In this document: positions 1 through 8,964 of the stretch, piece after piece | How the letters are laid out: the number at the start of each line of letters is the position of its first letter | Position numbering within the stretch: position 1 is the stretch's first letter | The notes under the pieces: generated by a model | Told to the model about the DNA's origin: nothing | The model's input: the letters and a program-made list of their open reading frames with translations, nothing else | Databases searched by the model: none | DNA from: a virus | Lineage: Duplodnaviria > Heunggongvirae > Uroviricota > Caudoviricetes | Virus record (IMG/VR): IMGVR_UViG_2690316267_000013 | Length of the DNA stretch: 10,743 nucleotides | Reading direction: 5' to 3' (one strand) | Program-made: the position numbers and the translations under genes

Positions 1-2334
1 TCAGGTTGTTGCAGGGTCGTCACATTTTGGCAGCCAGTCGCCGTAGCTTTCCTCTTTCAGCGTCAGGTTGGTCTGTATCCCCTGTTTGGTATGGCGCTTC
101 TCGTAATTCAGTCCGTATTCCTTCAGCATCACCGGCAGCCCCAGCCCGAACATTTTCAGACTGAGTACGTTCCGGTAGCCGTTTGCCTCCATGTAGGCCA
201 GATAGGCGTGATAGAGGTATTTACGGTAATTGCGCGGGATGATACTCGCGTTCCCCATATACATGCCGCTGGTCTGCGGCAGGGTTTCCAGATAGCCGAT
301 AAAATCAAACGTCGGGTCGGCATCCCGTTTGATGTTCAGCGCCTCGTCTGAGTTCTGCTGGGACTGAAGCAGTGACCGGGCGAGCATCGGGTCGCTGAAC
401 TTCTGCATCAGGTGACGCACGATGACCGCCAGCTCGCGGGTGATTTTGTCCTTAAGCTGCGGGTCGCGCTCCTGCGGGGCTATCTGTTCCGGGAAGTGAA
501 TAATCACCCGCCGGCGTGACACGCCGCCGCTGCGGTCGGTGAAGCGCATCGGGTTATTGTTCACGGCCAGAATCACCGCCGGGATGTGCGTGGAGTACGC
601 ATCCCGGTATTTCGGGTCAACGGACACCGCATCGCCGCCGGTGATGGCCTTGAGTCCGGCTCCGTCGCCGCTCCATTTTTCCTGGTCCGGCAGGCGTATC
701 AGTGAGAAGCCAGTTAACGCGGCACGTTCACGCGGGGATTCCAGCGTCTCAATGGTGGCCGACGTGGCGTTATCTTCCCCGGCCAGCAGGGTGGCTATTT
801 CGGCCATGATACTTTTGCCGCTGCCGCCGGGACCGGTCACCTCCAGAAAGAGCTGCCAGTCGTAGCGGTTTGCCAGCACCATAAACAGTGCGGCCAGAAT
901 CACGTCGCGTTTTTCCGCACGACCACCGGCGGCACGGTCAAGCCAGCGCCAGAACGCGGGGGCGTGGGTTTCCAGCGTTTCCCCTTCCACCGGCGGGGTG
1001 AAATCCACATCGCACAGGGTGCGCATCCAGTGTGACGGACTGTGCGGGTGGAACGTGCCGCTCTGCGTGTCGAGCACGCCGTTACGAAAGCCAATCAGGC
1101 GGCGGGAGGGGGCTTCCTGCTGCGGAATAATCAGCTTCAGGGTGTCCACCACGGAGGCCACCTTCCCGGAGGAGAACGGCGCGCGCAGCCGCTGAAACAG
1201 CCCGGCCACATCCCGGGCAAAGTCCTGTGGTGGCAGCACCTTCCAGACACCATTTTCATAACGGGACAGAAGCTGGCCGTTGGCATCGACCGCGAGCGCC
1301 TCGCCGTAATGCTCATAGATACGCATGGCCTTTTCGCTGGTACTCATGGCGGAAAACTCCGCTTCGCTCATGGTGTCGAACGGGCTTTCAGCCGGTGGCC
1401 GGATGGCATCATAAATGGCCTTACGGGTGGCTTCCCCGCCGTACTGCGTGAAGGCATCATTCCAGTCACCGAAGACCGGCGGCAGGGCAACAACACCTTC
1501 ACACGCATCTGCGGCTGCGGCGGCTTTTGTCTGGCCGTCACCGCTGAGGTCACGGTCAGCAGCAAGGACAATATGACAGGCCGGATGCTTCTGCCGGGCA
1601 AGGCTGGCCAGAGAAAGGAGGTTCACGGAAGAAAGCGCCACCATCACCGTTTCACCGGTCAGGTGATGTACGGTAAGTGCGGTCGCGTATCCCTCCGCTA
1701 TCCACAGACGTTTTCCGGCCTGATTCTGTCCTTCAAGGGTGTGACAGGTGCCCCTGACCTGTCCGCCTTTCAGGGTACGCTTACGGCCGTCAGCACTGAT
1801 TAACTGAAGGTTAACCAGTTCGCCGCTGTCGTCATACAGTGGCACCACAAGGTCACCGGCGCGCCAGCTCACGCCACCGGCTCTGTGTGTGCCGGTCAGC
1901 ATCCGGCATTCCCGGCCGGGAAAGCCCTTGCGGGTCAGGTAGGCGTTACCGGTTCCGGGACGGGTTTTTGCCATCAGGGTTTGTGCCAGTGCGGCGGCGT
2001 TCTTCCGGGCAGCGTCTGTTTCAGCAACGGCGGCGGCCGTCACTGCCGGGTCAGCCGGGGGCAGACTGCCGGTCACGGCAGCCACCTTTGCGGCCGCGTC
2101 GGACGGGGAGACACCAAACACCTTTTCAACCAGTTTCAGGCCGTCACCGGCACCACACTGATTGCAGTACCAGGTGCCGCGCCCCTCCCTGTCATCAAAA
2201 CGGAAGCGGTCACTCCCGCCACAGACCGGACAGGGCTGATGACGGTTTTTCAGCACCTGAATCCCCAGCGCCGGGAGAATACGCGGCCAGTGGCCGAGCG
2301 CATGGCTGACGGTGGCGGTTACGTTCATTTTCAT
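1..2334 (-). CDS. alpha: P4-type alpha replication protein: zinc-ribbon/TOPRIM primase fused to a P-loop helicase, 777 aa
   Basis: N-terminal Cys4 motif (CPVCGG...CNQCG), TOPRIM acidic motif (LAADRD), Walker A (GPGGSGKS). Length is identical to P4 alpha. SD aaggag lies about 9 nt upstream of the ATG at 2332-2334. Stop codon at 1-3. Confidence 0.9.
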   Translation of the reverse strand: MKMNVTATVSHALGHWPRILPALGIQVLKNRHQPCPVCGGSDRFRFDDREGRGTWYCNQCGAGDGLKLVEKVFGVSPSDAAAKVAAVTGSLPPADPAVTAAAVAETDAARKNAAALAQTLMAKTRPGTGNAYLTRKGFPGRECRMLTGTHRAGGVSWRAGDLVVPLYDDSGELVNLQLISADGRKRTLKGGQVRGTCHTLEGQNQAGKRLWIAEGYATALTVHHLTGETVMVALSSVNLLSLASLARQKHPACHIVLAADRDLSGDGQTKAAAAADACEGVVALPPVFGDWNDAFTQYGGEATRKAIYDAIRPPAESPFDTMSEAEFSAMSTSEKAMRIYEHYGEALAVDANGQLLSRYENGVWKVLPPQDFARDVAGLFQRLRAPFSSGKVASVVDTLKLIIPQQEAPSRRLIGFRNGVLDTQSGTFHPHSPSHWMRTLCDVDFTPPVEGETLETHAPAFWRWLDRAAGGRAEKRDVILAALFMVLANRYDWQLFLEVTGPGGSGKSIMAEIATLLAGEDNATSATIETLESPRERAALTGFSLIRLPDQEKWSGDGAGLKAITGGDAVSVDPKYRDAYSTHIPAVILAVNNNPMRFTDRSGGVSRRRVIIHFPEQIAPQERDPQLKDKITRELAVIVRHLMQKFSDPMLARSLLQSQQNSDEALNIKRDADPTFDFIGYLETLPQTSGMYMGNASIIPRNYRKYLYHAYLAYMEANGYRNVLSLKMFGLGLPVMLKEYGLNYEKRHTKQGIQTNLTLKEESYGDWLPKCDDPATT

Positions 2335-3260: not shown

Positions 3261-3540
3261 GCGTCCTGTCTCCCCGGTCTTTCTGCTGGGCGAGAAAATC
3301 GCGGCACAGGCCTTTGGCTTTCAGCTCATTCAGCACAAAATCAATATCTTCATTCAGGTAGCTGAAAATATGCGGAATGTAGAGCTGATGCAGGCCGGAG
3401 AGTTCACGGTGAATCAAATCACCCCCAACAAACTGGGATACGGCGCTGGCGCGGTTGAGCTTATGGTAAGCCTCAATGCTGAGGTGTTCACGGGCGTCAT
3501 GACGTGCTGAGACGGTCTGAGGGGCTTTTTTATTACGCAC
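3253..3540 (-). CDS. 95-aa protein with GTG start; possible equivalent of P4 epsilon (helper-prophage derepression) by position
   Basis: GTG at 3538-3540 is preceded by a strong SD (GGAGG, 6-nt spacer). It reads to TGA at 3253-3255. The ORF track merges this into a longer 177-aa ORF, but the SD-GTG context supports the 95-aa product. The functional call is positional only. Confidence 0.45.
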
Positions 3541-3730
3541 GGGACACCTCCACCACCGGCAGACGGGCAGCAAGGGAGAGCACATAGTCACGGACAAGGG
3601 AACGGCGGGCGCTGCGTTCATCACCGGCGACGGTGCGAAGCATACAGATACGGGGATGACGGCCTGCGCGACGGACAGCCGCAAACACAAAGACAAATTC
3701 AGGGTGTGAGGGGGTAAGGGTTGTAGCCAT
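3533..3730 (-). CDS. 65-aa first ORF of the left operon, Kil-like by position; its SD overlaps a seqC-like RNA target site
   Basis: ATG at 3728-3730 with SD AAGGAGG (plus-strand 3739-3745). Its stop overlaps the GTG of the next gene (GTGCGTAA). The ORF track extends this frame to 199 aa, but the upstream part is low-complexity and covers the immunity RNA region. Confidence 0.45.
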
Positions 3731-3741
3731 GATGGCAGCCT

Positions 3742-3782
3742 CCTTGAAGTAACAGTTACAGCTACCACTGGAGTTCCTACGC
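3742..3782 (-). promoter_or_regulatory. seqC-like target site (ccttgaagtaac ... gagttcctacgc) complementary to seqB of the candidate CI RNA
   Basis: Shares two sequence blocks with the site at 3963-3990. Both blocks are complementary to 3805-3828. Overlaps the SD of the 65-aa ORF. Confidence 0.5.
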
Positions 3783-3789
3783 TCATGGG

Positions 3790-3875
3790 TGGTAGCCCGG
3801 ACGGGGGTAGGAATACCGGCCTTCAAGGAAACCGGCCAGCCCGAAGGCTGCCCCGCCCGGACCACCATTATCTGA
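3790..3875 (-). ncRNA. cI: Candidate CI-like immunity RNA containing a seqB element (approximate boundaries)
   Basis: Non-coding stretch between the two target-like sites. It contains 3805-3828 (gggggtaggaataccggccttcaagg), the reverse complement of blocks in both flanking sites. A stable hairpin with a UUCG tetraloop on the minus-strand RNA lies at 3837-3850, and a possible closing stem pairs ggtggtccgg with ccgggctaccacc. Ends were not determined. Confidence 0.4.
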
Positions 3876-3962
3876 CAGAGGCTACGGTTTAAAAACCACA
3901 GCCAGAAAAACAGGTGTGCCGAAGCAACGACGTAAAAAAAGACGCATGGCGCGTCATATGTC

Positions 3963-3990
3963 GCCTTGAAGTAACTCGGGTTCCTACGCC
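3963..3990 (-). promoter_or_regulatory. seqA-like target site in the leader of the early leftward transcript
   Basis: ccttgaagtaac at 3964-3975 and ggttcctacgcc at 3979-3990, both complementary to the seqB-like element at 3805-3828. Confidence 0.5.
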
Positions 3991-4018
3991 CGGCTGCCGA
4001 TTTTGCGGCAGCGGAAAA

Positions 4019-4048
4019 ACTATATCCGCAAATGCCGGAAAAAGGCAA
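4019..4048 (-). promoter_or_regulatory. Candidate sigma70 early leftward promoter (PLE-like)
   Basis: On the minus strand: -35 TTGCCT (4043-4048), 18-nt spacer, -10 TATAGT (4019-4024). This would start the transcript about 20 nt upstream of the seqA-like site. By eye only. Confidence 0.35.
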
Positions 4049-4083
4049 GCCAGAAAAAGGGAGTTTTTGCAGAGCGGGCATCA

Positions 4084-4350
4084 TCATGCGTCGTACCCCC
4101 GTTTGCGTCCGGCAATGCGTCCGGCCATCCATGCGGTGACTTCAGAGTGCAGCCAGGCCACATTTTTACCGCCAAGACTCACCTGCGGCGGAAATTCCCC
4201 CTTACGGATGAGTTCATAGATGGTCGAGCGTGACAGGCCGCACAGGTGCATCACTTCCGGCAGACGTAAAAAACGCTCCTGCGTGATGTCCGGCAGCGGC
4301 ATCAGTGGCGTCACAGGGGCGGGAGACGGGGAAGAAAAAACAGCTTGCAT
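4084..4350 (-). CDS. vis: Vis/AlpA-family small HTH DNA-binding protein (late-promoter regulator and excision factor), 88 aa
   Basis: 88-aa ORF with SD gaggt about 7 nt upstream of the ATG. AlpA-like signature (LRLPEV...[16 protein letters not shown]). Same size and position as P4 vis (orf88). Confidence 0.75.
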
Positions 4351-7254: not shown

Positions 7255-8964
7255 ATGAGTATGTTTCAGATATCAGCTGGAGTGTTCTTTGATTTAGATA
7301 AAATAGAAAAACACGATGGCACATTTGTTTTTTATTCAAATGTTGATGTGTCTTTCTCGGTGGAAAACACCTCCCCTCTTTTTAAAGCAAATAAAATAAG
7401 TCATGATGGTATAAACTGTTATGTGGTAAACTATACTCTCCTGACCGAAAAACCAGAACGAATTGAAGCTGGAGTCGTAGTTAGGGCTGGTGATGAGGAT
7501 TATAGGCAACAATTTATTTTATTATGGGAATTCTATTTTGATTGTGTGGCTAGAGTAGAAAAAGAATCGGTTAAAAAAATATGTGCATTATCAAATTTTA
7601 ATAAACATCACTCAAAAATTGCGCTTGAAGTTGCCCCATATTTAGTGGAGATTAATCGAAGAGTTTCATTTGATGATGTCTCTGGGTTTTCTGCTTTTAT
7701 TAAAGATGTAGTGAATCTAAATAGATCTGCCTTTAAATCTTTAATGGCAGCGTTAAAAATAATTAGTGATTCAAAAGAATCATTGTCAACCAACTTTGAC
7801 CTGACTTATTCCATGTTAGTCTATGCCTTGGAGTCTTTGTCTCAAAGAAATGATAACTATAAGTCTGATTGGGATGACTACGATCAAAAAACCAGAGGTG
7901 AATTAGAGTCTGTATTTGAGCATATGCCTGGTGAGGATGTTTGTAAAATTAAATCAATACTTATTGAAGGCAAACAATTCAGATTACAAAAAAGGTTCAA
8001 AGATTTTATACTGAAAAATCTTGAAGAAAATTATTTCAATGAAACAGAGAGATATCCAATCCGCTATAGCTTCCTTAGTAGAGCTTTAGATAATTTATAC
8101 AAAATCAGGTCTTCTTTTGTCCATGAGCTTAAGCCACTTGATGCAATGATCTCGAAAGCCTACAATCCTGTTGGTGATTGTCTGGTTCTTTTTGGCGAAC
8201 CTCACTTCAGTTACTCTGGATTGCTTCGACTTCTTCGCCATGTGATAATAAATTTTTGCCGTAAAAACTACAGTCAAAAAAGAGAGTCTGTTAATTGGGT
8301 GATGGAAACATCGGGTGTAATGGTTGCAGAGATATCTGCACAATATTGGCTCTGGAATGCAGACGGATTTACAGCTAAAAGTATAGCGAAGTGGTTTAGT
8401 GAATACCTAAATATGTTAAATTTAGGCGAAGTCACTGATTTGCAGTCTATCATGGACAAAATTGAGATAATCTATGATCAATCCAAAAAAGAATATAAAA
8501 ATGGGTTGTTGCATTTTTATTTCTTATATAACTTAATGCATAATGGAAATAAGGGTGAATGGCTTGAGTTTGCGAACAAGCGAAGTTCTATACTTGTTTG
8601 TGATATATATTGGTATTCATGCTCTCCATATTTATATAAATCATTTACTAATGTTTCAAATGGTATTGCTGATATAAAAACATTGAGAAACTTTTTGTCT
8701 TGTTTTAACGAATATGATAAAAATAAATTTAAGCCAAATCGTTTAAATCTCCCTGCAATGACCGAAGTAATTATGTTGGCTTGCGCAGCAAATTCATTCT
8801 TCAGAATTGGAATGTATCAAGACTATGTTTTAATGGGCAATAGAGCGATGAGAGAAATTGCTTCAGTAAAAGATGTATTTTATTATATAAAAGAACGATT
8901 AAGTAATTCACAACTTATTGAATTGGACGAGTGCTTGAGATTGTATAGAAAAAAGGGGGGCTAA
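7255..8964 (+). CDS. Low-GC cargo protein of unknown function in the cos-int hotspot (569 aa from the first ATG; 567 aa from the better-placed ATG at 7261); candidate anti-phage or abortive-infection protein
   Basis: Long uninterrupted ORF with SD aagga 6 nt before the ATG at 7261. Composition is AT-rich and Lys/Asn/Ile/Phe/Tyr-rich, contrasting with the GC-rich satellite core. No Walker A and no YxDD motif. One R-x4-H motif (IRSSFVHE, codons at 8104-8127). Occupies the position where P4 carries gop-beta-cII. Confidence 0.8.
   Translation: MSMFQISAGVFFDLDKIEKHDGTFVFYSNVDVSFSVENTSPLFKANKISHDGINCYVVNYTLLTEKPERIEAGVVVRAGDEDYRQQFILLWEFYFDCVARVEKESVKKICALSNFNKHHSKIALEVAPYLVEINRRVSFDDVSGFSAFIKDVVNLNRSAFKSLMAALKIISDSKESLSTNFDLTYSMLVYALESLSQRNDNYKSDWDDYDQKTRGELESVFEHMPGEDVCKIKSILIEGKQFRLQKRFKDFILKNLEENYFNETERYPIRYSFLSRALDNLYKIRSSFVHELKPLDAMISKAYNPVGDCLVLFGEPHFSYSGLLRLLRHVIINFCRKNYSQKRESVNWVMETSGVMVAEISAQYWLWNADGFTAKSIAKWFSEYLNMLNLGEVTDLQSIMDKIEIIYDQSKKEYKNGLLHFYFLYNLMHNGNKGEWLEFANKRSSILVCDIYWYSCSPYLYKSFTNVSNGIADIKTLRNFLSCFNEYDKNKFKPNRLNLPAMTEVIMLACAANSFFRIGMYQDYVLMGNRAMREIASVKDVFYYIKERLSNSQLIELDECLRLYRKKGG

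Follow-up and report, generated by a model that had tools for sequence, protein, structure and literature searches.

In the 10,743-nt stretch of phage DNA analysed here (the window), the sequence directly upstream of a small toxin-like gene, kil, is likely to be the downstream target of a P4-type immunity RNA, whose annealing would occlude the Shine-Dalgarno (SD) sequence of kil and lead to Rho-dependent termination within the gene. We put the probability of this reading at roughly 80%, and we lean towards a translational step that is also quantitatively important. The design is the textbook one of phages P4 and P1, wherein a single small RNA masks the ribosome site of a toxic division inhibitor and also brings transcription to an early end. 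Both the arrangement and the proposed mechanism have already been described for these phages; the only thing specific to the window is its immunity allele, a predicted heteroimmune variant within a known system.

All elements of the site are on the minus strand. The target, seqC (or b2), reads CUUCAAGGAGG (3749-3739) and is composed of six specificity nucleotides followed by the GGAGG of the kil SD (AAGGAGG, 3745-3739); the ATG of kil (3730-3728) starts 8 nt past the SD, and the mRNA around the start reads ...GUAACUGUUA-CUUCAAGG-AGG-CUGCCAUC-AUG. An earlier note on this DNA had drawn attention to a seqC-like block (3742-3749) overlapping the SD (3739-3745) of a 65-aa ORF that starts at 3730; on re-checking, these coordinates are exact, and the overlap is confirmed in its positions and on the minus strand. 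Four copies of the 8-mer CUUCAAGG of seqC (3749-3742) or of its complement are present in the window, compared with 0.44 expected, and three of them form a trio: seqA (3971-3964), seqB (as CCUUGAAG, 3828-3821), and seqC itself. The remaining copy (1731-1738, plus strand, within the primase gene) is seqB-like in the mRNA sense and lacks the target sense; we discarded it as a chance occurrence. A CUCC near 3773-3770, together with GGAG, is a candidate for a local anti-SD hairpin, and both arms are invariant among relatives.

Which RNA would anneal here? The gene for an immunity RNA of the C4 family, corresponding to the CI RNA of P4, is found at 3785-3872 (minus strand; full-length Rfam C4 match, 86.1 bits), between a PLE-like promoter and kil and hence in the leader of the operon under control. 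This match and those to the Rfam families isrK and c4-a1b1, described below, all exceed the gathering threshold of their own family. The predicted fold of the RNA (-53.3 kcal/mol) leaves two segments exposed, namely a 12-nt hairpin loop, UUUCCUUGAAGG (3831-3820), that contains seqB (b'), and, immediately 3' to the hairpin that bears this loop, the unpaired a' block UUCCUAC (3813-3807). Between the loop (U3831 to G3821) and seqC (G3739 to C3749), 11 base pairs can form, nine of them Watson-Crick and two G-U, and these cover the entire SD. In a loop-only scan, seqC was the strongest site for the loop across the entire 4-kb transcript (-14.8 kcal/mol). The seqB-like partner that the earlier note had postulated for seqC is therefore the complementary loop of an Rfam-recognized C4 RNA, and the pairing is borne out by covariation in 56 relatives (see below). 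A second complementary block was absent from that note: GUAGGAA, which matches the a' block (3813-3807), precedes both targets (3987-3981 and 3780-3774), the latter copy (a2, minus strand) being the first part of the downstream target. Block a2 also lies in the loop of an alternative hairpin (3761-3796, minus strand), in which the 3' arm (3796-3789) of the CI stem pairs with 3768-3761; among 56 sequences, 99.8% of its cells are paired and four of its pairs have changed on both sides. This hairpin competes with the CI RNA stem, a copy of whose 5' arm recurs downstream and takes up the 3' arm.

The upstream part of the cassette mirrors the downstream target. The promoter scan identified a PLE-like constitutive promoter (TTGCCT-18 nt-TATAGT; 4019-4048, minus strand) that is identical to that of P4 in alignment A1. 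It is followed by a leader RNA carrying the upstream targets (3935-4012, minus strand), which matches Rfam isrK with 73.4 bits (gathering score 50) and overlaps a 49.6-bit match to c4-a1b1 ("a1,b1 targets of C4") at 4025-3973, so that two Rfam families here describe one element. Within the leader, block a1 (GUAGGAA, 3987-3981) sits inside a hairpin loop, block b1 (seqA) reads CUUCAAGG (3971-3964), and the end is formed by a hairpin plus U-run (3955-3935) that the terminator scan revealed as the counterpart of P4 't1'. Between 3785 and 3730, the terminator scan found neither an intrinsic terminator nor a U-run. Inside kil (3574-3730, minus strand) lies a C-rich, G-poor homologue of the Rho-dependent terminator fragment timm of P4. 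The P4 fragment (X51522:8365-8209; PMC3177188) maps to L001:2416-2572, from the kil ATG, and the window stretch is nearly identical to it in alignment A1. This counterpart comprises the first 157 nt of kil, and nowhere else in the region is the C/G ratio as high (1.5-1.8).

Evidence that these blocks work together comes from related loci, of which we collected 205 (viral-contig scans, and a genome-contig scan with the Kil protein; at least five loci). Immunity cassettes could be parsed for 197 of them and fall into 50 combinations of loop and a' block, the window's allele being the commonest (17/197). In every parsed cassette, seqC ends in GGAG directly before the start of an Icd-like ORF. From these loci, 56 diverse representatives were aligned with the window as first row (alignment A2). 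For the RNA and its downstream target (a2 plus seqC), 94.6% of cells are paired in the 56 sequences, against 72.6% upon shuffling (the observed value being reached in none of 500 shuffles) and 38-50% when the partners are slid against each other, and 12 of the 18 pairs have changed on both sides. The values for the upstream target (a1 plus seqA) are 98.6% paired versus 71.3% shuffled (again 0/500) and 40-51% slid, with 12 of 15 pairs changed on both sides. In both counts the a helix is 100% paired, and in a2:a' both sides have changed in six of the seven pairs across the 56 relatives. Of the pairs that enter the SD, G3743-C3827 is kept in 56/56, G3742-C3828 in 55/56 and A3741-U3829 in 50/56 sequences; further out, G3739-U3831 is retained in 52/56 and G3740-U3830 only in 29/56. 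GGAG is invariant throughout the 56 sequences, of which 54 have ATG and two have TTG as start codon, as read from alignment A2, since a pattern match on 85 cassettes was confounded by a TTG inside GGAGGTTGCC. When 85 distinct cassettes were considered, at least eight contiguous pairs were present in 78, and the contiguous helix extended over at least 3 nt of GGAG in 71. Judged from sequence comparison, this covariation shows that the pairing between RNA and target is under selection. The a and b blocks assort independently, and the loop type of the window was found with four a' types. A new block type needs matched changes at three places, which raises the question of how types arise without passing through a non-immune intermediate.

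What could such pairing achieve in the cell? In P4, base-pairing of the CI RNA to seqA and seqC results in termination (PMC4825925). In the window, the constitutive PLE promoter would give rise to a transcript that opens with the leader and its target pair, continues with the CI RNA and the downstream target pair, and then reaches kil; the CI RNA would be processed out of this very transcript. It would then bind through its two exposed segments, UUCCUAC annealing to GUAGGAA (3780-3774) and the hairpin loop UUUCCUUGAAG to seqC (3749-3739), thereby burying the kil SD and blocking ribosome loading. Left untranslated, the C-rich start of kil (the timm homologue) would be open to Rho, and transcription would stop before epsilon, orf151, orf106 and alpha. 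The CI RNA would also promote earlier termination at the leader terminator by seqA (3955-3935) and possibly at a further RNA-dependent site between the CI RNA and kil. As an outcome, the Kil/Icd-like toxin and satellite replication would be kept off, both in the lysogen and against superinfecting satellites of the same type. The translational block and its coupling to Rho-dependent termination are modelled on experiments with P4 and P1; for P4, Forti 1999 is said to have proposed that immunity negatively controls kil translation, which allows termination at timm. With this analogy, the sequence data support the view that the RNA would mask the ribosome site of the toxic first gene besides causing termination.

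In a simple energy estimate, the b and a duplexes came to -13.2 and -7.7 kcal/mol, respectively, and the cost of opening at about 16 kcal/mol (~4.4 for the RNA and ~11.6 for the mRNA), leaving a net balance that is slightly favourable. Given this small gain, binding is probably co-transcriptional and occurs on the nascent RNA. We used the loop-only scan and the opening-energy estimate in place of duplex folding of whole RNA segments, in which the hairpin stems pair as well and shuffled targets reach similar energies.

Alternatively, seqC might be a termination signal only: binding of the CI RNA to nascent a2 plus seqC would trigger a factor-independent stop ('t4') before kil. This we consider unlikely, yet it is the rival that fares best. 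The upstream seqA target has both blocks as well and is immediately followed by an intrinsic terminator, and its GG facing the CC of the loop is as conserved as in seqC, despite there being no ORF; part of the SD overlap hence reflects the needs of the RNA-RNA helix. Moreover, a2 is located inside a conserved hairpin. Briani et al. 2000 reportedly concluded that P4 lysogens depend mainly on a Rho-independent terminator, t4, located between cI and timm, and that timm is dispensable for lysogeny. If t4 is indeed the main terminator, repression of translation may serve as a back-up and the principal switch may lie elsewhere. However, a stop of this kind would not account for the GGAG found 5-9 nt before an Icd-like start codon in 56/56 cassettes and in a P1-like phage, nor for a helix that enters the SD in the great majority of cassettes, and the stretch from 3785 to 3730 lacks the U-run or intrinsic terminator to go with it. 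In addition, the homologous site of P1/P7 acts via translational repression.

The gene behind the SD, kil (3533-3730, minus strand), encodes a 65-aa Icd-like inhibitor of cell division and, of all genes on the PLE transcript, is translated first. Its product matches the NCBIfam model phage_ICD_like ("host cell division inhibitor Icd-like") with an E-value of 1.4e-20 and shares 64 of 65 residues with P4 Kil, the lone difference being at residue 23; calling the ORF Kil-like, as had been done before, was thus apt as regards both the single substitution and the division-inhibitor family. The gene is nested in frame within a longer ORF, eta (3533-4087, minus strand), assigned by Pfam Phage_ASH and Icd-like matches and by the frame arithmetic of P4, a nesting that the earlier note did not mention. 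The start codons of eta, ATGATGATG (4087-4079), share bases with the stop codon of vis, and Eta is 182-184 aa long in the window and 197-199 aa in P4, which has 45 extra in-frame nucleotides. A mechanical ORF of 199 aa from 4132 was rejected as the start of eta, as P4 homology favours ATGATGATG and the matching length is a coincidence. According to PMC10111431, eta is translated only from an upstream late promoter, and Forti 1999, as cited there, reported that eta translation prevents termination in P4 and that Kil is a truncated Eta which is made on read-through and kills cells.

Could the 65-aa ORF lack initiation of its own, being just the C-terminus of Eta, with the apparent SD merely an RNA target? 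With kil in the eta frame throughout, coding conservation cannot separate the two. Nevertheless, this alternative is very improbable, as the SD and ATG are conserved, the free-standing icd of P1-like phages starts at the homologous Met, PGAP calls a separate 65-aa protein, annotated as Icd-like, in a genome of identical sequence, and P4 Kil has been identified as a 65-aa product (Forti 1999, as cited in PMC10111431). The probability that the complementarity is a chance match is negligible: while 8-mers can recur by chance, and one extra copy is indeed present in the primase gene, four copies were reached in 0/200 shuffles, a second independent block pairs as well, and the massive double-sided covariation already refutes the idea.

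Pfam Phage_ASH matches the translated stretch of seqA, t1 and CI RNA (window 3533-4132, minus strand; L208 5255-5632), and PGAP annotates the seqA-t1-CI RNA stretch in the identical genome as an 'ash family protein' pseudogene and no RNA. Part of the Phage_ASH protein-family signal may reflect constraints on RNA.

How does the cassette compare with that of P4, whose immunity was reportedly described in Ghisotti 1992, Sabbattini 1995, Forti 1999 and Briani 2000? Over 1.2 kb around the site, the immunity region is ~95% identical to P4, and its parts follow one another as in P4, with promoter, leader hairpins, RNA scaffold, GGAGG, spacer, ATG, kil and timm region nearly identical in alignment A1; the set of satellite genes (alpha, epsilon, sid-like, delta, psu) is shared as well. 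A C4/CI RNA resides in the operon leader, with seqB complementary to seqA and seqC, and kil, 65 aa long, is the first translated gene, in frame in eta and with seqC at its start. The core genes of a P4-like satellite are present, and the site has every feature by which P4-type RNA immunity can be recognized at the sequence level; at the RNA level, systems of this type rely on maturation by RNase P and PNPase and on immunity exerted in trans. Against this background, five short patches differ from P4 in matched fashion (alignment A1). Both seqA and seqC read CUUCAAGG in the window and UUCACAGG in P4, and seqB is CCUUGAAG in the former and CCUGUGAA in the latter; likewise, the two a targets are GUAGGAA instead of GUGAGAA, and the a' block of the RNA is UUCCUAC instead of UUCUCAC. 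Because the specificity nucleotides are unlike those of P4, the two are predicted to be heteroimmune; by its pairing blocks, the window is a P4 relative of different, self-consistent immunity specificity. Further differences are integration beside ssrA, a different cargo gene and, from t1 to the RNA, a length difference of 45 nt that keeps the frame (window 3880-3935, minus strand; L001 2167-2270). As most relatives have the short form, P4 appears to carry a 45-nt insertion.

The site is likewise reminiscent of the immI operon of P1/P7 (c4, icd, ant), reportedly treated in Citron and Schuster 1990, Biere et al. 1992 and Riedel et al. 1993. There, too, an RNA of the C4 family is processed from the transcript under its own control, and its a'/b' blocks pair with a1/b1 and a2/b2, b2 lying over the ribosome site of an Icd-like gene, the configuration that we find in the window. 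Biere, Citron and Schuster 1992 are said to have shown that the c4 RNA of P1/P7 covers the ribosome site of icd (orfx) and blocks its translation, upon which Rho-dependent termination ensues before ant. The P1-like phage D6 possesses an isrK-like leader, a C4 RNA and a b2 (GCAAAAGGAGG) over the icd SD, and its icd product starts with MATIPTPTH, compared to MATTLTPSH in the window. In contrast to P1, with its antirepressor Ant downstream of icd, the window has P4 replication and derepression genes: Pfam searches of the ORFs downstream of kil, namely epsilon (Derepression family), orf151, DUF5375 and primase, detected no Ant, KilA or Rha domain. Since no ant follows kil, the site does not belong to the P1/P7 operon type, even though it would work alike. 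Furthermore, P1 has a protein repressor, C1, and Icd and Kil share just ~35% identity.

A third point of reference is IsrK (STnc1160) of the Salmonella prophage Gifsy-1, as the window leader matches Rfam isrK. IsrK is a structural homologue of the P4 seqA RNA, just as C4 corresponds to the CI RNA (PMC4825925, PMC3632133). However, according to published work IsrK acts in trans to switch on translation of orf45-anrP, whereas in the window the leader would serve the immunity RNA as target or decoy, with kil as the regulated gene. Lastly, the linear plasmid-prophages N15, phiKO2 and PY54 (CB RNA) and lambdoid Stx phages with C4-like RNAs gave DNA matches over the RNA plus the first part of an icd-like gene; they differ from the window in having antirepressor or Rha-type genes downstream. 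Many lambdoid phages (records H24-H72, including Stx phages, mEp460, phiP27 and others) have a C4-like RNA and then an icd-like start that leads into an antirepressor or Rha gene; in most of these records, the C4-like RNA is unannotated.

The window is a P4-type satellite prophage of E. coli. Several E. coli chromosomes match its whole length with 100% identity, and at least 80% of it is present in 241 complete genomes. While P4 itself integrates at leuX, this element is located between ypjA and ssrA (tmRNA 10704-10342), with the satellite integrase at 10157-8961 (minus strand). Upstream of the cassette lies a vis/alpA-like gene for an 88-aa regulator (4084-4350, minus strand; Pfam Phage_AlpA, 7e-21), the counterpart of P4 ORF88. 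Pfam matches and synteny with NC_001609 identified vis/alpA and the integrase, the primase-helicase gene alpha (2334-1), epsilon (Derepression family), delta (Ogr/Delta zinc finger) and psu as core satellite genes, and DUF5375/orf106 and orf151 are present in addition. A sid-like ORF was assigned by its syntenic position relative to NC_001609 and had no Pfam match. Between psu and the integrase, at the variable cargo position of P4-like satellites, a 569-aa ORF (7255-8964, plus strand) is without a Pfam domain, and PADLOC relates it only weakly to Cas13-ApeA (7e-6). A role of this ORF in anti-phage defence is possible.

Given that the idea had been published before, a fact absent from the earlier note, the use of the present analysis lies elsewhere. 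RefSeq records with the exact sequence annotate neither the RNA gene nor its targets and treat the eta part as a pseudogene, and the comparative set amounts to a catalogue of immunity types that could predict which satellites exclude each other. A more far-reaching idea, which we regard as doubtful, is that the cassette constitutes a two-part, freely reassorting address code that forms an RNA-based immunity network between elements. If true, the code would combine a 7-nt block a with a 6-nt block b that is fused to a constant, anti-SD-like UUUCC/GGAGG clamp, and at least 50 combinations would be in circulation. C4-family RNAs of resident prophages, be they helpers or unrelated (P1-like, N15-like, Stx), that share one block could then cross-silence the kil or icd of satellites in the same cell, or fail to do so, and hybrid cassettes with a seqB that mismatches its own seqC could be escape or 'virulent' variants. 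Four loci in our collection (L095, L087, L137 and L185) have a seqB loop that mismatches the seqC of the same cassette. Recombination, decay, escape from immunity or chimeric assembly may lie behind them; in L095, the loop matches neither seqA nor seqC.
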